Source: Patescibacteria group bacterium
Lineage (GTDB): Bacteria; Patescibacteriota; UBA1384; XYA2-FULL-43-10; 1-14-0-10-43-13
DNA: 59,323 nt
Direction: 5' to 3'
NCBI GenBank assembly: GCA_038078835.1
Contig: JBBTQI010000002.1
Location: 1-59,323 of the forward strand
In this document: piece by piece, positions 12,444 to 58,115 of the stretch
How the letters are laid out: every line of letters begins with the position of its first letter
Position numbering within the stretch: position 1 is the stretch's first letter
Made by a program: the position numbers and the translations under genes
Notes under the pieces: generated by a model
What the model was told of the DNA's origin: nothing
Seen by the model: only the letters and a program-made list of their open reading frames with translations
Database searches by the model: none

Positions 12444-12989
12444 TCACGGTTTTCTTTTGTGCCGGTGTTTGGGGTAGATAACCGTCACTTGGTGGTACTT
12501 GTTCCGGACCATGGCGCGGGCGATTTTGCCGTTTAGTCGGAGTACGATATGTGACTCAACGCCGAAGGTCTCCCGAAGGAGGTCGGCCGCTTTCTCCTTT
12601 ATCCCGGTGATATCGCGTTGCCGGTTGAGGTAGAGGCAAATCTCATGTCCGGTTGCTTGTATCAGGCCGGTCCTGAAGCCAACATCCTTGGGGCGGTTTG
12701 CGGTTCCCCACAGTAGTGCCTGAAGTAGTGCCAGGGCGTAAGGGAACCTGATGCAGGCCACCACTCCCGTTGGCAGGGAATGCTCCAGCGGCTGGATCTC
12801 ATCCCCCAGGAGTCTGGCGGCGGCAACGACCTGTTGGCTAACTCCGTCATCACGGGCGAGCCAGTTGTGAAGAGCCGCCGCCGCCCTGCGGCGTTCTAGT
12901 CGGCTGTGGCTAGTGTTGAGGATAGTCGCGACCCAGGTCAAGCACTGTACTGCTACCAGTTCCTCTGGTTGAATCTTTCTTGCTCCCAT
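12444..12989 (-). CDS. Hypothetical protein (181 aa), orphan in GC-rich islet
   Basis: Clean ORF on the minority strand with a long-loop hairpin plus T-run downstream (12359..12436 region). No recognisable family. Confidence 0.5.
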   Translation of the reverse strand: MGARKIQPEELVAVQCLTWVATILNTSHSRLERRRAAAALHNWLARDDGVSQQVVAAARLLGDEIQPLEHSLPTGVVACIRFPYALALLQALLWGTANRPKDVGFRTGLIQATGHEICLYLNRQRDITGIKEKAADLLRETFGVESHIVLRLNGKIARAMVRNKYHQVTVIYPKHRHKRKP

Positions 12990-13161
12990 CTTCCCTCCTT
13001 TGATCGCTGCCGGTGATTCGCGCCGTTCCGGCGATCGTTCGGATACTATAATATTTACGCTAAAAATACAAGATCAGTCGCTAAATCCATTCTTCCCTTC
13101 GGTCCCCTAATATGGTAAGATGGGCTCAATTGGGACGGGACTAATTTTTGAAAGAGGCATT

Positions 13162-14631
13162 ATGACTGAGCATTTGGGCGCGACGGAAAAGGAACTCATT
13201 GCAATCCGCAAACAGAAGCTGGAGAAGATGCGTGAAATGGGGCTTGACCCTTATCCCTCTGATTCAAGTCGCCAAAACAAAATCGGCGAAGTTATCGAGA
13301 ACAAGGACGATCTCTTGGTCGGCGGCAAGGCGGTGGCGATCGCCGGACGGATCATATCGCTTCGCGGCCATGGCAAGCTCGTCTTCGCCGATCTTCTGGA
13401 TGAGTCGGGCAAGATCCAGGTTGTCTTCAAGGCTGATCTTCTGACCGAGGCGGAGTTTAAGCTGATCGATCTTCTTGATCGGGGCGATTTTATCGAAACA
13501 ATGGGACCGCTCTTTGTGACCAAGGCCGGCGAGATGACCGTCGAAAGTCGGAGCGTTAAAATTTTGGCCAAAGCGATTCGGCCTCTGCCGGAGAAATGGC
13601 ACGGCTTAAAAAACGAGGAATCAAAATTGCGCAAGCGTTATCTTGATCTACTCTTGAATCCCGAACTTAAAGAGCTTTTCCGGCAGAAAGCACGGTTTTG
13701 GCAAGCAACGCGGCAGTTTTTAGTCGATCAGGGTTTTTGGGAGGCGGAGACACCGGCGCTGGAGACGACCGCCGGCGGGGCTGACGCCAATCCCTTTGTG
13801 ACTCATCACGATGCTCTCGACATCGATGTCTATTTGCGTATCTCAATGGGAGAGCTGTGGCAGAAGCGCCTGATGGTGGCCGGCATGGAGAAGACCTTTG
13901 AGATCGGCCGGCAGTTCCGGAACGAGGGGTTAAGCCGCGAGCATCTCCAGGATTACTCCCAGATGGAATTTTATTGGGCTTATGCCAACTACCGCGACTC
14001 GATGGCGCTCGTGTGCCAACTCTATCGCTATATTGCCCGGGAGACCTTTGGCACAACCAAGTTTCATATCAATGGTTTTGATATTGATTTGGCCGATGAG
14101 TGGAGCGAGATTGATTATGCGGCAACCGTTCGGGAGAAGATGGGCCTCGATGTTGCAACGGCAACGGAGGGGGAAATAGCGGCCAAACTTAAGGAGAAAA
14201 AGATTGAGTTCAATCCGGCGGACCGCCGCGGGCGCCTCATCGACGCGCTCTGGAAACAGATTCGCAAAGGCGTTGCCGGTCCGGCTTTTCTTACCAATCA
14301 TCCGGTTGAGGTTTCTCCTCTGGCCAAGCGGAAAGTTGACAACCCTCGACTTGTTGAGCGCTATCAGGTAATATTAGCGGGCTCGGAGCTGGGCAACGGT
14401 TATTCGGAGCTGAACGACCCCCTTGACCAGGCGGAGCGTTTCCGGGAACAGGCCGCCTTACGGGCGGCAGGGGACAAAGATGCTCAAATGTTCGATCAGG
14501 ATTTTGTCGAAGCGCTGGAGTATGGTATGCCCCCCACTACCGGCTTTGGTTTTTCTGAGCGCCTCTTCGCTTTTCTGGCCAACCGTCCCGTCCGCGAAGC
14601 CGTCCTGTTTCCCTTAATGAGACCTCAATAG
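13162..14631 (+). CDS. lysS: Lysine--tRNA ligase (class II)
   Basis: OB-fold N-terminus, class II motifs (FEIGRQFRNEG, GFGFSERL). AAGAGG precedes the Met at 13162. Confidence 0.95.
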   Translation: MTEHLGATEKELIAIRKQKLEKMREMGLDPYPSDSSRQNKIGEVIENKDDLLVGGKAVAIAGRIISLRGHGKLVFADLLDESGKIQVVFKADLLTEAEFKLIDLLDRGDFIETMGPLFVTKAGEMTVESRSVKILAKAIRPLPEKWHGLKNEESKLRKRYLDLLLNPELKELFRQKARFWQATRQFLVDQGFWEAETPALETTAGGADANPFVTHHDALDIDVYLRISMGELWQKRLMVAGMEKTFEIGRQFRNEGLSREHLQDYSQMEFYWAYANYRDSMALVCQLYRYIARETFGTTKFHINGFDIDLADEWSEIDYAATVREKMGLDVATATEGEIAAKLKEKKIEFNPADRRGRLIDALWKQIRKGVAGPAFLTNHPVEVSPLAKRKVDNPRLVERYQVILAGSELGNGYSELNDPLDQAERFREQAALRAAGDKDAQMFDQDFVEALEYGMPPTTGFGFSERLFAFLANRPVREAVLFPLMRPQ

Positions 14632-32337: not shown

Positions 32338-32516
32338 CCGTGAAACCGGAAATTAAATATCTAATCTGTATCTTTATATTCCTCCCCTAGGTTAGGGGAG
32401 GTTAGGTGGGGTGGTAAAATAGATCGGTCTCGTACCCCTCTAGCTCCCCCTGTCTTGGGAGAGAAACACAAGTAATAGCAAATGCCAGTCATGATATTTA
32501 ATTTCCGGTTTCACGG
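32338..32516. repeat. 179-bp element bounded by a perfect 24-bp inverted repeat
   Basis: CCGTGAAACCGGAAATTAAATATC (32338..32361) versus its exact reverse complement (32493..32516). Inner hairpin CCTCCCCTA-ggt-TAGGGGAGG at 32381..32401. Confidence 0.85.
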
Positions 32517-33287: not shown

Positions 33288-35366
<2,079 letters not shown>

Positions 35367-35493
35367 ATGTCAAAGATTCTACCTCCCCTTATCCTCTTCT
35401 GCTCTGGGAGGGGGAAATGAAATAATGTTTCTAAAAAAATCTATAACGGGACTACATAATATCCAGAGAGGAATAATTTTCCCTCTCCCCTTC

Positions 35494-35521
35494 TTGACAA
35501 ACTATAAAAGGGTGCTACAAT
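35494..35521 (+). promoter_or_regulatory. Near-consensus sigma70 promoter facing the ORF-free GC-rich region
   Basis: TTGACA (35494..35499), 16-nt spacer, TACAAT (35516..35521). Confidence 0.5.
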
Positions 35522-35527
35522 AGCGAC

Positions 35528-36714
35528 AAACCCTGAGTAGGCAAGAGACTACCAGGTCAAGGGCAAGGTGGTGCCAATGGGCCGGCCGCCGTTCGATGGC
35601 GGTGTGGTCTGTTGGGCTGTCGTTGCCGGCCACCTAGACGGCGGCCTCGGCGAGAGAAGAGTGCGGTCGGCCTACCGGGCCGCATGATCGGGACACCTAC
35701 GGAGGGTCCCGAGACAACAGGTAGAATGAGCGCGGACATCGCCCTAAACCGCGCGGGTGAGCAGTCTCACCTTCCCAAGGGCACGGTAGAGGCCGAGTCG
35801 GGAGCGGCGGCGGCGTTATGCTGACGATGTTCCTTGTCGCCGCTCCCGGCCTGTGAAGGAGGAACCATGGGAGGACAGTGGATTCGGGGTCCACTCAGTC
35901 GTCCGAGGTGTCACTCCTGTCTTGCGGGGATTGGTCGACGGTGCCGCGACGCGATTGGTACCTTCGATGCGGCTTTCGGGCCGTTAGTCCGCGCGAGACG
36001 TTCGGTTCCGGTCATCTCTTAGGTTCGCATGTCCCGGAGGTGCGATGGCTAGAAACACATCGCCTCTCCGCCGGCGCAGGGCCGAGGACCCTGTCTGCCG
36101 GTCCGACTCGACACCGCCGAACAGCAACGGGGCGGTTGCCAGAGCCTCCAGCTGGCACCGCACTGAATGCGTAGCGGGAAGGCGCACGAGCCCCAAATGG
36201 CCACCAATGAGTGGCAGTGGGCACATTGTGTCGACCTATCCCCTCCCCAAACGGGGCGCATCGGCCTGAAGTGGCGCTCTCCTGCTTCTGGCCATGAAAC
36301 TGAGAGCACCCGTTCGGTTCGGCAACGCCGGCGGCTGGATCCTGCCATAGTGTGGTAGGTAGGTAAGCTCCCTGCAGGAGCCAATGGCGGATCCAGCCGC
36401 GTTCTTGTGCGCAACGGGTAACCAGCGCACAAGGCAGGGAGACGTCGGCCCTGTCTCCCTGCCTGCATTCATTCTCCCGGCGTCTTCCACTCCGATTCAT
36501 CTTATGCCGGGAGACTGGGTGGCAACGGCCCAAACTTGTCGAGTTAGCCAATCACATTCTAAGCCCGTCAGGGCACAAGGGTGACGATCTTCGGCAAGGG
36601 GAGTGCTGTTGCCCCCGCCCTATTGCCGGCGCTGATTGCCGGTTTCCGAGCCGATAGCGGTGGTAAGTCAATTTGATGCCCCTAACAAGGTGTTGAAGAC
36701 TTCCACCGCTTTTT
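35528..36714 (+). ncRNA. Candidate large (~1.2 kb) structured non-coding RNA, family unknown
   Basis: No credible ORF in any frame and GC-rich. Many nested helices of 9 to 15 bp, with G.U pairs valid only on the + strand. Has its own promoter and a terminator-like 3' end. Confidence 0.5.
36657..36714 (+). terminator. Terminator-like hairpin at the end of the candidate RNA
   Basis: GCGGTGGTAAGTC (36657..36669) pairs with GACTTCCACCGC (36698..36709) with a 1-nt bulge and a 28-nt loop, followed by TTTTT (36710..36714). Confidence 0.35.
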
Positions 36715-36837
36715 CATAACAAGAAAAACCCATGCCCATAAGGGCGGGGTAAGTAAGATAGTAAACGCCGCAGGCGTATTCAGTTTGTCGTTTTATAAGG
36801 CTTGAATACAGATAGGGGAAAGTGATAAGGTTGTTTT

Positions 36838-36912
36838 AGTAGCTGGGTATCAGTAGTTAGAAATTAGGAATTGTTTTTTTCCAGCTACCAACTACTAAAT
36901 TCCTAGCTGCTT
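36838..36912. repeat. GTAGCTGG / AGTAGTT / TAGGAATT word spacer upstream of gatC
   Basis: Each word reappears as its reverse complement (CCAGCTAC, AACTACT, AATTCCTA), but in the same order rather than nested. Confidence 0.7.
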
Positions 36913-36917
36913 TATAT

Positions 36918-37208
36918 ATGGCCATTAATATTGATCAAGTAAAACATATTGCCAAGTTATCGCGCTTGGAGTTAAGTAAAGAGGAAGAGATGAAATATAC
37001 AAAAGAGCTCTCCTCTATTTTGGACTATGTCAATCAATTATCGAAAGTTGAGACAGAGAGTATTGAACCAATGGCTAATATTACAGGCTTGGAAAATGTT
37101 ATGCGGGAGGATAAAGTCGAAGAATTGGGAATATCGCACGACGATATTAAGAAGAACTCTCCAGAGTTTAAGGGTGGTTATTTTATTGTGCCGGGAGTGT
37201 TTGAATAA
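36918..37208 (+). CDS. gatC: Glu/Asp-tRNA amidotransferase subunit C
   Basis: VKHIAKLSRLELSKEEEMKYTKELSSILDYV is the typical GatC pattern. Confidence 0.85.
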   Translation: MAINIDQVKHIAKLSRLELSKEEEMKYTKELSSILDYVNQLSKVETESIEPMANITGLENVMREDKVEELGISHDDIKKNSPEFKGGYFIVPGVFE

Positions 37209-37293: not shown

Positions 37294-38886
37294 ATGGAAC
37301 TGAATAAACTGACAATCAAAGAGGCTAGCGAAAGATTAGCTAGGAGCGAGATTACCTCGGTTGAATTGACTGAAGCGGTTTTTGAGCGAATTGAGGCGGT
37401 AGAATCAAAAATCGGAGCGTATATAACTCTGACCAAAGAATTAGCATTAAAGCAGGCGAAAGAATCAGATAAGCGTAGAAAAGCAGACAAACCACTCTCA
37501 GAAATCGATGGTATTCCAATCTCTCTAAAAGATGTTGTGTTAACAAAAGGAATTAAGACAACTGCAGCTTCAAAGATTCTTGATGATTTTATTCCGCCCT
37601 ACAATGCAACTGTTTATGAAAGATTAATGAGTGCTGGCAGTGTCCTGACCGGAAAAGTGAATACCGATGAATTCACCATGGGTTCATCAACGGAAGCATC
37701 GGCGTACAAGACAGCAAAAATCCCTCACCCTCACCCTAACCCTCTCCCTGAAAGGGAGAGGGAATTAAGAGGAACTCCCTCGCCCATTCCGATGGGAGAG
37801 GGTAGGGGTGAGGGTATATCAACAACAAGAAATCCCTGGGATTTGTCTCGTGTACCAGGCGGTTCATCGGGCGGACCGGCAGCAGCAGTAGCAACTGATG
37901 AATGCTTGGCTTCAGTCGGAACGGATACCGGCGGATCAATTCGCCAACCAGCGAGCTTTTGCAGCATCACCGGCCTTAAGGTTTCTTATGGTTTGGTTTC
38001 TCGATATGGCGTTGTAAGTTATGCTTCCAGTTTTGACACCGTTGGTCCGATGGCCAAATCGGTTGAAGATATAGCGATTGTGTTAAATAAAATCGCCGGA
38101 AATGATCCTCGCGATAGCACATCGGTGGCGCATGACCTGCCGGATTATTTAACATCATTAAATTCTAAAATAACCGGTAAGAAGATCGGTATTCCAAAAG
38201 AATTTTACGGCGAGAGTTTGGATCCGGAAGTAGCATCAAAGTTAAGAGACGCAGAAAAAGTCTTTGAAAAACTAGGCGCAAAAATGGTTCCGGTTTCATT
38301 ACCGTTAACTCATTATGCGATTGCCGCTTACTACATCCTGGTTAAATCAGAGGCTTCCTCAAACATGTCGCGGTATGATGGTATTCGCTATGGCCATTCC
38401 GTCTTGAAGAACAAGAAACTTGATCGAAGACTTTCGATACTGGATGTTTATCTGGAGAGCAGGTCAGAGGGATTCGGTCCGGAGGTAAAGCGATCAATTA
38501 TGATGGGGACGCATACTCTTTCCTCCGGCTACTTTGATGCTTATTATAGAAATGCGGCTAAAGTTCGAACTTGTATTAAGCGTGAGTATGAAAGAGTTTT
38601 TAGGGAAGTTGATGTTTTATTGGCGCCGATCTCCCCTTTTCCGGCTTTCCGACTAGGCGAGAAGATTGATGATCCGTTGTTGATGTATCTGGCGGATGTT
38701 GATACGGTGCCGGTCAATATTGCCGGAATTCCGGCTTTGAGTATTCCAGTCGGATTTACCAGTAATAATTTGCCGGTCGGTTTGCAGTTGATCGGGCCGA
38801 TGTGGGGGGAATCGACGCTTTTACAAGTCGGACACGCTTTCCAGCAAGAGACTGATTGGCATCTTAAAAAACCAGTAATTAAATGA
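37294..38886 (+). CDS. gatA: Glu/Asp-tRNA amidotransferase subunit A (amidase signature)
   Basis: GIPISLKD, GGSSGGPAAAVA and GTDTGGSIRQPA motifs. Carries an in-frame insertion. Confidence 0.9.
   Translation: MELNKLTIKEASERLARSEITSVELTEAVFERIEAVESKIGAYITLTKELALKQAKESDKRRKADKPLSEIDGIPISLKDVVLTKGIKTTAASKILDDFIPPYNATVYERLMSAGSVLTGKVNTDEFTMGSSTEASAYKTAKIPHPHPNPLPERERELRGTPSPIPMGEGRGEGISTTRNPWDLSRVPGGSSGGPAAAVATDECLASVGTDTGGSIRQPASFCSITGLKVSYGLVSRYGVVSYASSFDTVGPMAKSVEDIAIVLNKIAGNDPRDSTSVAHDLPDYLTSLNSKITGKKIGIPKEFYGESLDPEVASKLRDAEKVFEKLGAKMVPVSLPLTHYAIAAYYILVKSEASSNMSRYDGIRYGHSVLKNKKLDRRLSILDVYLESRSEGFGPEVKRSIMMGTHTLSSGYFDAYYRNAAKVRTCIKREYERVFREVDVLLAPISPFPAFRLGEKIDDPLLMYLADVDTVPVNIAGIPALSIPVGFTSNNLPVGLQLIGPMWGESTLLQVGHAFQQETDWHLKKPVIK
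37714..37822 (+). repeat. In-frame palindromic insertion in gatA (~36 codons)
   Basis: CCCTCTCCC-tgaaa-GGGAGAGGG hairpin (37740..37762). Left arm 37728..37748 matches the reverse complement of 37794..37814. Encodes AKIPHPHPNPLPERERELRGTPSPIPMGEGRGEGIST between STEASAYKT and TRNPWD. Confidence 0.8.
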
Positions 38887-39826: not shown

Positions 39827-40272
39827 TGGCCAATCAGCGCAAAAATCAGCAAACGGTTTTGGAGGCTCTCGTTTTGGGGATCCTGCGCGGCATCGCGGCG
39901 CTCTTCCGTTTAATTTTCAGGCGCTGGCAAGGCCGGCGCGGCTTGAGTTGGCCGGAGAAACAGGAGATCATTCGCCGCCGGCTCGAGATTGAAGAGATGC
40001 TTAAATCGGAGAATATTCATGAACTGCGCCAGGCAGTCTTTGAGGCCGACAAGTTGGTTGATCGGGTTTTGCGCGGAGTCGGATTTGCGGGCGAATCAAT
40101 GGGGGAGCGGTTAAAAAATGCTCACAGCAAGATCGACAGGCAAACTTACGAGAGCATCTGGCAGGGGCACAAAGTGCGCAATCAGTTGGCGCATGAACAC
40201 AGTCAAAATATCGATTGGCACGAATTGCGAGGCGCGGCCGAGAAATTGCTAAAATATATTAAAACTATTTGA
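39826..40272 (+). CDS. Hypothetical protein with an Rx4H (HEPN-like) motif
   Basis: KVRNQLAHEH near the C-terminus and an N-terminal hydrophobic segment. Wedged between the PPIase gene and gatB. Confidence 0.45.
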   Translation: MANQRKNQQTVLEALVLGILRGIAALFRLIFRRWQGRRGLSWPEKQEIIRRRLEIEEMLKSENIHELRQAVFEADKLVDRVLRGVGFAGESMGERLKNAHSKIDRQTYESIWQGHKVRNQLAHEHSQNIDWHELRGAAEKLLKYIKTI

Positions 40273-41825
40273 TGATGGATAGCCTTAAAACCACAATGGA
40301 TTCGACTTTACTCACCATAATCGGCTTAGAGATTCATGTTCAGCTCAAGACCAAGAGCAAGATGTTTTGCCGTTGCGATAATAACGCCGAGGGTAAAGCA
40401 CCAAATACGGTAGTTTGTCCGGTTTGCTTGGGCTTGCCCGGCGCCTTGCCAGTGGCTAATAAACAGGCAATCGAATGGACAATCAAGACCGGAATCGCCT
40501 TAAACGCCCAAATTTCCCCGATGGCCAAATTTGATCGCAAACACTACTTTTATCCCGATCTACCCAAGGGGTATCAGATTTCACAGTATGATGAGCCTTT
40601 TTGTGTCGGCGGTTATATTGAAATCGAGGCAGATAGTTCTCGGCCGACGGCCTCGAACAATATCTCGAATACTCTCGATGCAAGTATTGTTCGAGCAAAG
40701 CGAGAACTAAGTAAAATAAAAATCAGGTTCAATCGCATTCACCTGGAGGAGGATGCCGGCAAGCTGATCCATTCGAATGGTCAAAGTTTAGTTGATCTAA
40801 ACCGAGCCGGGACGCCGCTGATGGAGATAGTAACCGAACCGGACATCACCTCGCCCAAAATGGCCGGCGACTTTTTGCGCCGGCTGCAAAAAGTAGTTCG
40901 CGACGAGGTTGAAGTTTCCGATGCCGATATGGAAAAGGGGCACTTGAGATGCGACGCCAATATTTCAATTTGTGAGTCGAAAGGCGAAAGGCGAAAGGGT
41001 GAAAGTATTAGGATGTCGGAGATTGTGGAGATCAAGAATTTAAACTCATTTAAATTTGTCGAAAAAGCCTTGGCGCTGGAGGAGGTAAGACTTAAGGCTG
41101 ACTATCCCAACTGGCCCAAGAAGCGGACCAAGGTGACGCGAGGCTATGATAGTGTCAAAAATATTACCTATGTCCAGCGTCAAAAGGAAGAGTCGGCTGA
41201 TTACCGCTACTTCCCCGAACCGGACATCCCGCCGATTGATACATCAAAAATCGATCAGGGAAAATTAGCTCAAGAAACCACTGTTTCGCTGGAAGAAAAA
41301 ATTGACAACCTTATTTCAATGGGTTTGACACCGGCTGATGCTGAAATTATAGTTAAGGATAAGACAAGATGGAGACAATTTAATGATATTTTGACTCAAT
41401 CACACCGCGACGATGCGTCTTTTGTAAAAGCGCTAGCTCAAAGCCTCATTCATAATTATTTTGGTTTTTCTCTTGAAATTCTCGGTGGAGTCAAAACCAA
41501 TCCTTACATCGATCTTATTGAGGCATTTGCTGACGGCCAGGTTACCAAGGCTCAATTTTCGGCTCTGGCCAAATTTATTCATGATCATAACTCTTCATAC
41601 GAAGAAGCAAAAAAGGCGGTCGGTCTGGAGGTGACCGGTGATCGCAAGGAGCTGGAAAAAACTGTCGAGACCGTTCTCAGTCAAAATTCGGCCGAAGTGG
41701 TTAGATATAAAAGCGGCAGGACGCAACTTTTCGGTTTTTTTGTCGGTCAGGTTATGAGAGAAACAGGGGGGCGGGCCGACCCTAAATTGGTTAATGAGAT
41801 ATTACGAAGAAAACTCATTTCTTAA
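40272..41825 (+). CDS. gatB: Glu/Asp-tRNA amidotransferase subunit B
   Basis: IGLEIHVQL, CPVCLGLPGALP, HLEEDAGK, EIKNLNSF, C-terminal GatB/YqeY domain. TGATG overlap with the upstream stop. Confidence 0.9.
   Translation: MMDSLKTTMDSTLLTIIGLEIHVQLKTKSKMFCRCDNNAEGKAPNTVVCPVCLGLPGALPVANKQAIEWTIKTGIALNAQISPMAKFDRKHYFYPDLPKGYQISQYDEPFCVGGYIEIEADSSRPTASNNISNTLDASIVRAKRELSKIKIRFNRIHLEEDAGKLIHSNGQSLVDLNRAGTPLMEIVTEPDITSPKMAGDFLRRLQKVVRDEVEVSDADMEKGHLRCDANISICESKGERRKGESIRMSEIVEIKNLNSFKFVEKALALEEVRLKADYPNWPKKRTKVTRGYDSVKNITYVQRQKEESADYRYFPEPDIPPIDTSKIDQGKLAQETTVSLEEKIDNLISMGLTPADAEIIVKDKTRWRQFNDILTQSHRDDASFVKALAQSLIHNYFGFSLEILGGVKTNPYIDLIEAFADGQVTKAQFSALAKFIHDHNSSYEEAKKAVGLEVTGDRKELEKTVETVLSQNSAEVVRYKSGRTQLFGFFVGQVMRETGGRADPKLVNEILRRKLIS
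40635..40708 (+). repeat. In-frame palindromic insertion in gatB
   Basis: AGTTCTCG (40635..40642) / CGAGAACT (40701..40708) enclose CTCGAACAATA (40652..40662) / TATTGTTCGAG (40685..40695). A second word tract, CGAAAGGCGAAAGGCGAAAGGGTGAAAG, lies at 40976..41003. Confidence 0.8.
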
Positions 41826-56438: not shown

Positions 56439-57178
56439 GGCGACCGATTGTAGTCGGCAACTGGAAGATGTACACGCGGGCGGCCGACGCAACTATATTG
56501 GCAACAACTTTGCGGGATAATTTAGCTCGCCTGCCAGAAGCGGAGATTGTTCTTTGTCCGCCGGCAGTCTGGATTTCTGAGGTTTTGGCGGTAGTCGGCC
56601 GGGGTCGGATTGAGCTTGGCGCTCAGAATATGTACTTCGAGGTAGAGGGTGCCTTTACGGGCGAGATCTCCCCGCTGATGATTCGGGATGTGGCCAAATA
56701 TGTTATTATCGGTCACTCTGAGCGCCGGGAGCATTTCGGCGAAACCGACGAAATTGTCAATGAAAAAACCATCGCTGCGCTCGAAGCCGGTCTGGTGCCG
56801 ATTGTTTGCGTTGGCGAGCGCAAAAAAAAGAACAATCCGGCCGAACCGGTGGCGGAACTCAAAGCGGCGCTGGAGGAGATTCCTAAAAAACGCCTTACCG
56901 ACATCGTTGTGGCTTATGAGCCGGTTTGGGCGATCGGAACGGGGGATAATGCCGCTCCGGAGTATGTAGCCAGAGTGATTAATCAACTGCGGGAGGTTGG
57001 TTTAGCCGAAACACCCGTTCTCTACGGCGGCAGTGTCAATTCAAAAAACATTGCCGCTTACGCCGCCCGCCCCGAGATTGACGGCGTTCTGGTCGGCGGC
57101 GCCAGCATCCGCTCGTCGGAGTTTGTCAAAATCTGTGAGACCTGGGCTCGCGTCAAGCACTTCCGCAGTCAGGCTTAA
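56435..57178 (+). CDS. tpiA: Triosephosphate isomerase
   Basis: VGNWKMY, IGHSERR, AYEPVWAIGTG. Confidence 0.95.
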   Translation: MRRPIVVGNWKMYTRAADATILATTLRDNLARLPEAEIVLCPPAVWISEVLAVVGRGRIELGAQNMYFEVEGAFTGEISPLMIRDVAKYVIIGHSERREHFGETDEIVNEKTIAALEAGLVPIVCVGERKKKNNPAEPVAELKAALEEIPKKRLTDIVVAYEPVWAIGTGDNAAPEYVARVINQLREVGLAETPVLYGGSVNSKNIAAYAARPEIDGVLVGGASIRSSEFVKICETWARVKHFRSQA

Positions 57179-57180
57179 TG

Positions 57181-57189
57181 TGGTATAAT
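57181..57189 (+). promoter_or_regulatory. Extended -10 element (TGGTATAAT) just after the tpiA stop
   Basis: TATAAT at 57184..57189 lies 7 nt before the ATG at 57196. Confidence 0.3.
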
Positions 57190-57195
57190 TTGGTT

Positions 57196-57501
57196 ATGAC
57201 AGAAGAAAAACTATCAAAAATGCCGCAGTCGGTCAAGGTTACCCTTTGGTCGTACGACACGGACAGATTAGACTTGGAAAAATCCGGTCGAACTGTAATC
57301 GGGCAGGTTTTGAACTACGGCAGCACAGAAGCATGGGATTGGCTTTTCTCTTACTACGGCAGGGATCGTGTTCGAGAAGAGGCCGCGAGAGTACCCAAGG
57401 GGGCATGGAACAAACCATCTCTTGCTTTGTGGTCGCTGGTTCTGGATATCCAGCCAAAAGAAAGGTCTGAATGGATGAAGATATCTTCCGCGACATCTTA
57501 G
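57196..57501 (+). CDS. Small protein upstream of the nucleotidyltransferase (putative antitoxin/partner)
   Basis: Overlaps the downstream gene by 31 nt. The start could instead be 57178 (TAATG overlap with tpiA). Confidence 0.4.
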   Translation: MTEEKLSKMPQSVKVTLWSYDTDRLDLEKSGRTVIGQVLNYGSTEAWDWLFSYYGRDRVREEAARVPKGAWNKPSLALWSLVLDIQPKERSEWMKISSATS

Positions 57502-58115
57502 ATGAGGAACGCAGGAAAATTCTACCATTGTTGGCAGATTTTAAGGCTGGTTTTTATTTGGCTGGCGGCACCGGTTTGGCTTTACAGTTAGGACATCGCG
57601 ACAGTATCGACTTTGATTTTTTTAGACCCGATTCTTTTTCAACCGAGGAACTTTTTGAAAAAGTTCAAGCGACATTCACCGGTCACAAGATCGAGAAAAT
57701 CCAGGACGAGAAAGACACTCTCAGTGTTATCATCGACGATAAAATCAGATTCAGTTTTTTAACTTATCCTTACCCGTTAATCGGTCAAATTATCAATGAT
57801 CGATATCTTAGATTGGCTTCAGTCGCCGATATCGGTTGTATGAAATTTTCAGCTATGACCGGTCGGGCTGCCTTAAAGGATTACATTGATCTGTATTTTA
57901 TTCTGCACAAAATCCCATTACGGGAGCTCGTTCAATTATCGGAAAAAAAATTTCCAACCCTAAACCACGCTTTAATTATGAAAAGTTTGGTCTACTTCGA
58001 CGACATCGAGTTTGTCGAGATTAACTATAAACACGGCCGACAGGTTGACTTTTCCGATATTAAAAAATATCTCGAGGATACGGTAAAGAACCATCTAAAG
58101 GCAGAGTATAAATAA
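57471..58115 (+). CDS. AbiEii/AbiGii-like nucleotidyltransferase family protein
   Basis: FYLAGGTGLALQLGHRDSIDFDFF matches the family N-terminal NTase pattern. Confidence 0.55.
   Translation: MDEDIFRDILDEERRKILPLLADFKAGFYLAGGTGLALQLGHRDSIDFDFFRPDSFSTEELFEKVQATFTGHKIEKIQDEKDTLSVIIDDKIRFSFLTYPYPLIGQIINDRYLRLASVADIGCMKFSAMTGRAALKDYIDLYFILHKIPLRELVQLSEKKFPTLNHALIMKSLVYFDDIEFVEINYKHGRQVDFSDIKKYLEDTVKNHLKAEYK

Follow-up and report, generated by a model that had tools for sequence, protein, structure and literature searches.

What is a hairpin-forming stretch of DNA doing in the middle of an essential gene? The question is raised by gatA in a contig of a groundwater Patescibacteria group bacterium (JBBTQI010000002.1, assembly GCA_038078835.1), of which we analysed positions 1 to 59,323; 'the window' below means this whole stretch of 59,323 nucleotides. 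The gene (37294..38886, + strand) is essential, the formation of Gln- and Asn-tRNA depending on it, and here it encodes an intact amidase-signature enzyme of 530 amino acids with a palindromic segment embedded in its reading frame. A sequence-only reading of the window had likened this segment to the Rickettsia palindromic elements (RPEs). To judge from its motifs, the segment is an inverted pair of BoxC/PIT/TMECO repeats, and we consider it likely that it represents selfish or structure-prone DNA lodged in a permissive loop of GatA and translated with it, RPE-like in this respect but of another family.

An in-frame insert in a variable loop of GatA

As the sequence-only reading had noted, the open reading frame (ORF) passes through the segment as STEASAYKT AKIPHPHPNPLPERERELRGTPSPIPMGEGRGEGIST TRNPWD, in frame and stop-free. 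The proposal that this is an inserted repeat rather than an ancestral loop is borne out by comparison with GatA orthologs, for which we took the 120 best homologues (Patescibacteria/Berkelbacteria-type GatA proteins) as relatives. No relative carries the BoxC-type segment (119 lack it), nor do six solved GatA structures, which cover query residues 1-140 and 177/178-527 and have no counterpart to residues 141-176. Counted from DEF.MGSS to NPW, the loop at this site spans 21 residues in 66 of the 120 relatives and 28 residues, that is 7 more, in another 47 (SAYKTAK-DFD-STTRNPW and similar). One relative (P0074) carries an unrelated 26-residue insert at the same loop, the closest one (P0002) has a different 7-residue extension, and the length classes at the site are 0, +7 and +26 residues. 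On these alignments, the insertion site is a naturally length-variable loop, an indel hot spot.

The query has SAYKTAK and STTRNPW in common with the 28-residue clade, and its foreign part is therefore I143-I175 (33 residues; 37720..37818, + strand), which takes the place of ~3 residues (DFD/EFD/EFN) at the core of the SAYKTAK-xxx-STTRNPW loop in that clade. The limits first proposed, 37714-37822, thus hold for the fact of an insertion and not for its extent, which moves inward since the loop of the clade is already 7 residues longer. The repeat proper occupies 37722-37814 (93 nucleotides), for a net gain of ~90 nucleotides or ~30 residues. Its peptide is rich in Pro, Gly, Glu and Arg (IPHPHPNPLPERERELRGTPSPIPMGEGRGEGI); IPHPHPNPLPER and GTPSPIPMGEGR are among the tryptic peptides that a retained insert would yield.

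The insert lies 14 residues upstream of the GGSSGG signature (residues 189-194). Alignment to the Staphylococcus aureus GatA (2df4), relative to which residues past the insert are offset by +37, places the catalytic triad at K79, S191 (within GGSSGG) and S215. All three are invariant columns, as is S192. The closest homologue in the protein collection is 68% identical and the 90% cluster of the query holds a single member.

Structure and identity of the insert

The perfect 9+9 hairpin that had been reported at 37740-37762, CCCTCTCCC-TGAAA-GGGAGAGGG, is present, with 0 expected in 100 shuffles. The nearly complementary outer arms were also found, as 37727-37748 and 37794-37815 (22 nucleotides each, 91% complementary), and both features are unexpected under dinucleotide-preserving shuffles. 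Folded as RNA, positions 37705-37830 reach -61.7 kcal/mol (z = -7.3), a stability attained by none of 200 shuffles. The GC content rises from 0.44 in the remainder of gatA to 0.60 in the insert. Only one of the six combinations of phase and orientation in which the 93-nucleotide element could be read is stop-free, namely the actual one. The locus is identical, base for base, in four independent assemblies (a 197-kb contig of an NCBI metagenome-assembled genome (MAG), two from Logan that stem from different runs and one from ENA), and 11 contigs carry the exact query protein.

The published BoxC/PIT/TMECO pattern is CCCTCNCCC-N3-6-GGGNGAGGG-N3-GGGNGAGGG (PMC4666352), where TMECO stands for triplex motif of E. 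coli (Holder et al. 2015, PMC4666352); earlier work on BoxC/PIT, by Bachellier in the 1990s and by Hoyne et al. in 2000, is cited there. In a regular-expression scan with this pattern, unit A of the insert (37728..37762, - strand; CCCTCTCCC-TTTCA-GGGAGAGGG-TTA-GGGTGAGGG) fits it strictly, at all 27 specified bases, and unit B (37777..37814, + strand; CCCTCGCCC-ATTCCGAT-GGGAGAGGG-TAG-GGGTGAGGG) fits it except for an 8-nucleotide first loop. AT/AT pairing (2+2 nucleotides) inside that loop leaves a TCCG loop, and the effective stem of unit B is CCCTCGCCCAT/ATGGGAGAGGG. Between the two units lies a 14-nucleotide spacer (37763..37776, no strand assigned; AATTAAGAGGAACT). An extra CCCTCA hexamer (37722..37727, + strand) forms a fifth C-tract on the 5' arm, adds two codons (PH) and gives a second match offset by 6 nucleotides; it probably arose by slippage duplication. 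The whole inverted doublet (37722..37814, likewise without an assigned strand) has its tails pointing out, the C-rich tail being outermost at the 5' end and the G-rich tail outermost at the 3' end. On the mRNA-sense strand, this G-rich tail of unit B (37794-37814) fits a quadruplex motif, G3N1-7 x4. Together with the pattern of mirror G-blocks, this motif provides no more than the sequence prerequisites for a triplex or a quadruplex. The flanks read ...AAAAT / element / TATATCA, with no direct repeat at the gatA locus.

TMECO repeats number 23 in E. coli K-12, where they are 'always located intergenically', and 3610 across 262 proteobacterial genomes (PMC4666352). In vitro they adopt a triplex structure, and they have no associated transposase (PMC4666352). 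About 100 hairpins of the type CCCTCTCCC..GGGAGAGGG are described in Enterobacter sp. 638 (PMC2869309).

Distribution of the repeat family

Both units recur far outside gatA. The 21-mer of unit A, CCCTCACCCTAACCCTCTCCC, is found exactly in more than 120 IMG/VR contigs, and nearly all the matches listed continue with a short loop and then GGGAGAGGG, at times with one base changed. More than 120 metagenome contigs contain an exact copy of the 26-mer hairpin of unit B, ATTCCGAT loop included; by our own estimate, fewer than one match would be expected by chance for either word. Tails-out doublets make up 22 of the 124 instances of the unit-B hairpin among the matches listed. Two compact soil doublets (L329 and L290) are identical to the gatA copy at 71 and 73 of 87 positions, respectively (~82-84%). 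A 28-mer specific to the spacer had no match in the JGI metagenomes, hence no sibling copy with the same spacer is seen there.

Among the matches listed, the titles of genomes with compact tails-out doublets cover about 17 phylum-level groups. They include Enterobacteriaceae, Alpha-, Beta- and Deltaproteobacteria, Chloroflexota, Planctomycetota, Acidobacteriota, Armatimonadota, Verrucomicrobiota, Cyanobacteria, Omnitrophota, Ignavibacteria, Caldithrix, Methylomirabilis/Rokubacteria, Binatia, Dormibacterota, Syntrophomonadaceae and Candidatus Andersenbacteria (L146), which is another lineage of the candidate phyla radiation (CPR). The motif described as a 'G-quadruplex-hairpin-duplex switch' by Kaplan et al. 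2016 (PMC5100583) is probably BoxC/TMECO as well.

The BoxC pair in the E. coli hrpB-mrcB intergenic region (L245-L248) is polymorphic. Strains K-12 and O157 have the full pair, in N5D43 it has collapsed to a single hairpin, and K-15KW01 lacks it and has 8 nucleotides of different filler instead. No Y1 transposase (PF01797) was found among the called genes of three contigs covering ~57 of the 78 kb of host sequence (L121, L249 and L251), and no cognate transposase is known for TMECO (PMC4666352).

Four IMG/VR contigs of enterobacterial-looking context (L018, L089, L105 and L061) hold a 160-bp element with a conserved interior of 92-94 nucleotides and outward-pointing TMECO units at its ends. 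In its sequence, this element looks like a miniature inverted-repeat transposable element (MITE) whose terminal inverted repeats are TMECO units.

In-frame copies in other coding sequences

Is gatA an isolated accident? The sequences at hand suggest that in-frame residence is recurrent for the BoxC family. In an Ignavibacteria MAG (L174; JAAFIV010000027.1, 7000-7180, - strand), dnaE is interrupted by a tails-out doublet. Residues 7-282 and 327-658 of the product align with E. coli DnaE, and the 44 residues in between are an addition to the HHH_6 domain that falls between positions 823 and 826 of the E. coli protein. Pfam assignments place three further units in soil metagenome contigs. One is in frame within an OppD-like ABC ATPase domain (L338), one in the linker of a hydroxyacyl-CoA dehydrogenase / enoyl-CoA hydratase (3HCDH-ECH) protein, 'SPSPIPMGEGAGGEG' (L273), and one between two CoA-transferase domains, 'PSPIPMGEGKGEG' (L283). 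The two linkers contain unit-B-type units reading '...SPIPMGEG.GEG', the same frame as in gatA. An Anaerolineae protein resembling thymidylate kinase in Pfam (L180) has an array of PEGEGRVRA repeats. BoxC-type peptides are also present in an ORF of contig L259 that we read by eye as putatively TPR/glycosyltransferase-like.

Our literature search found no published description of in-frame BoxC residence and, for the encoded peptide motifs, nothing relevant. A protein word search with the 40-residue insert peptide gave no usable candidates. An exhaustive HMMER search of the insert peptide against 1.84 billion representatives gave 16 matches and was of no help in finding in-frame insertions: of the four that were inspected, three are tandem-repeat proteins with the look of spurious ORFs across arrays of repeats, and the fourth is an unrelated repeat protein.

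Origin of the insert and alternative explanations

We propose that a widely distributed, GC-rich, tails-out BoxC/PIT/TMECO pair became lodged in the gatA gene of this Patescibacteria (CPR) lineage, at a place that encodes a short loop of variable length. As gatA is needed for Gln/Asn-tRNA formation, only a stop-free insertion of a multiple of three nucleotides would be survivable, so that the element would be read through and would add ~30 residues. These would probably form a disordered, floppy loop, and the protein would tolerate selfish or structure-prone DNA, as with RPEs. In an AlphaFold2 model, the predicted local distance difference test score (pLDDT) is 27-57 across the insert, save for a short helix at 153-159.

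Several points weigh against this proposal. Translation of the insert is itself deduced from the sequence, and we likewise infer the structural neutrality of the insert and its way of arrival. The confidence of the AlphaFold2 model is low at residues 126-192, GGSSGG included, and neither the packing of the loop nor an effect on activity can be read from it. There is no sign of activity of the repeat in its host: neither the window nor the 77.9 kb of parent contig that were read contain a further TMECO-type unit. The sequence-only reading had counted a lack of other copies in the genome as an argument against an inserted repeat; none further is present in these 77.9 kb, yet the family is abundant in other genomes. 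The protein collection holds no empty-site allele of the query gatA from which a target-site duplication or the exact ends of the element could be read, the nearest GatA being only 68% identical. In the E. coli hrpB-mrcB comparison of filled and empty sites, where 8 nucleotides are replaced by ~110, no clean target-site duplication is seen.

Could the insert instead have been co-opted by its host? The mRNA hairpin of about -62 kcal/mol or the quadruplex-prone tail would then tune translation or mRNA processing of gatCAB, or the new loop of Pro, Gly and charged residues would have acquired a role, be it in the enzyme or in the transamidosome. The sequence is fixed, being identical in all assemblies seen, its RNA structure is very stable, the sense strand bears the G3N1-7 x4 motif, and TMECO oligonucleotides give both triplex and quadruplex in vitro (PMC4666352, PMC5100583). 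However, the contigs all come from one population, and fixation of the insert therefore says little; no relative carries the insert, which means that there is no conservation signal; and in E. coli no effect of these motifs was found, be it as promoter, as terminator or on polymerase in vivo (PMC4666352). We thus regard co-option as unlikely, although it fares better than the other alternatives.

The sequence-only reading had also considered that the segment might be removed 'by an unknown route', for which we found no evidence. An insert excised from the mRNA like an intron, or skipped by the ribosome in a translational bypass, draws its sole support from the strong hairpin that would bring the two ends together. 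Rfam searches of the whole window at gathering thresholds, and of 35200-37000 at E<=1, gave no family relevant to the insert, which has 93 nucleotides and no intron-like core, and no stop codon is present at a take-off site. The insert is in frame in the single open combination of six, which would be unnecessary if the segment were removed and fits translation, and the same repeat family appears to be read through in dnaE and other genes. Removal or bypass is accordingly very improbable.

Slightly less credible still is a loop specific to the lineage, grown in place through slippage or duplication, that would resemble a repeat by chance or convergence alone. Loop length does vary among relatives, and the CCCTCA hexamer is duplicated locally, but growth in place would leave unexplained the agreement of unit A with 27 of 27 specified TMECO bases, the exact 21-mer and 26-mer in hundreds of unrelated contigs, the ~82-84% identity to soil doublets and the jump in GC content. 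Least credible of all is an artefact of assembly or amplification at the hairpin: palindromes can give chimeric joins, but the locus is the same in all four assemblies, the exact protein is on 11 contigs and a clean in-frame ORF results.

Three other classes of element were tried and rejected: an intein (no Hint domain and only 33 residues), a group I or II intron (no Rfam match in the window at gathering thresholds and only 93 nucleotides) and a CRISPR or tandem array (a single doublet).

Beyond the translated doublet in gatA that we favour, a wider and distinctly more tentative suggestion can be made. BoxC/TMECO units and doublets may constitute one horizontally spreading family, near-identical across more than 15 phyla including CPR, which would repeatedly colonise coding sequences in frame (gatA, dnaE, an ABC ATPase, inter-domain linkers) and be moved either by an unknown transposase or by structure-driven copying during replication or repair. 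If true, such a family invading coding sequences in many phyla would be of greater interest than the single case in gatA, whose interest is moderate.

Other features of the window

The gatCAB operon is otherwise intact. Directly 5' of gatA lies gatC (36918..37208, + strand), a 96-residue ORF for which the gene call of contig L121 gives Pfam GatC. The third subunit is encoded by gatB (40272..41825, + strand), corresponding to the L121 gene call at 12979-14532 (offset +27293), with Pfam GatB_N and GatB_Yqey; it is the presence of this gene that completes the operon.

Words related to the insert had been reported at two non-coding sites, 32381..32401 and 35383..35410, and only the first belongs to a related repeat. 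The intergenic sequence at 32381..32411 (+ strand; CCTCCCC-TAGGTTA-GGGGAGG-TTA-GGTGGGG) follows the TMECO design of C-block, G-block and mirror G-block, with blocks of 7 nucleotides; none would be expected by chance. The same pattern was found in 86 IMG/VR viral contigs, some of which have matches on the opposite strand ~80 nucleotides away. From this layout, we take the site as a member of a sibling repeat family. The second site, 35383-35410, was rejected as a related element: it is a loose hairpin just past the stop codon of ligA (35366) and lacks a third block.

Between ligA and gatC (35367-36917) extends a GC-rich stretch of 1.55 kb with no credible ORF and no Rfam match, the plus strand of which folds at -500.7 kcal/mol per 1001 nucleotides. 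This stretch could be an undescribed large structured RNA. Across positions 1-59323 there is neither a tRNA gene nor, at gathering thresholds, any Rfam family. Finally, a toxin-antitoxin-like gene pair (DUF6922 / AbiEii) is present at 57178-58115, flanked by tpiA and gap in a row of genes that is otherwise glycolytic.

Comparison with known systems

The gatA element resembles MITEs and REPINs in being a small, non-autonomous inverted doublet, folding into a long hairpin and dispersed in many genomes. It has the terminal inverted repeats and the small size of a MITE (22-nucleotide arms, 91% complementary; 93 nucleotides in all), but no target-site duplication was seen for the BoxC family in the E. 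coli hrpB-mrcB comparison. REPINs are doublets of REP sequences (repetitive extragenic palindromes) mobilised by RAYT transposases, whereas BoxC/TMECO repeats have no known cognate transposase.

The closest match is with the TMECO repeats of E. coli. Both have a 9-nucleotide C-block, a loop, a 9-nucleotide G-block, a 3-nucleotide loop and a second G-block; the first loop is the sole difference between unit A and E. coli TMECO no. 2 and no. 17; and inverted TMECO pairs occur in E. coli as in gatA. The differences lie mainly in context. The E. coli copies are intergenic, which is an observation and not part of the definition, whereas the gatA copy lies inside a coding sequence, at codons 143-175. 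The reported hosts are 262 proteobacterial genomes, and here the host belongs to the Patescibacteria. The gatA pair has its tails pointing outward and the hrpB-mrcB pair inward, unit B has the 8-nucleotide ATTCCGAT loop, a variant that is itself widespread, and the gatA copy is single in 78 kb of its host genome, while BoxC/TMECO is known as a dispersed multi-copy repeat. What is new here is thus a coding-sequence context and a host range for a known repeat family, which adds to the known class of protein-coding palindromic repeats.

BoxC-type repeats are evidently able to reside in essential genes, also in organisms with very small genomes. Such copies provide natural test cases for the behaviour of a hairpin-, triplex- or quadruplex-prone sequence under transcription and translation, for the tolerance of GatA and DnaE to an extra loop, and for how a nearly invariant motif of 20-35 nucleotides came to distant phyla. 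For annotation, they account for recurrent peptides of the '...PSPIPMGEGRGEG...' type in otherwise conserved proteins.

How far, then, does the likeness to RPEs go? RPEs are summarised in PMC10969869, after Ogata et al. 2000, as elements of ~150 bp in ten Rickettsia-specific families, with dozens of copies per genome. The likeness drawn in the sequence-only reading holds for function and fails for family. Like an RPE, the gatA element is a palindromic repeat in frame in a housekeeping gene, where it would contribute an extra peptide in a permissive region. Unlike RPEs, it is 87-93 bp long, GC-rich and apparently solitary in its host. Membership among RPEs is not claimed, given the match to BoxC/TMECO (PMC4666352) and the Patescibacteria host. 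The gatA insert thereby joins two separate lines, the triplex- and quadruplex-forming BoxC/TMECO repeats of E. coli and the Rickettsia style of selfish DNA residing within genes that code for proteins.

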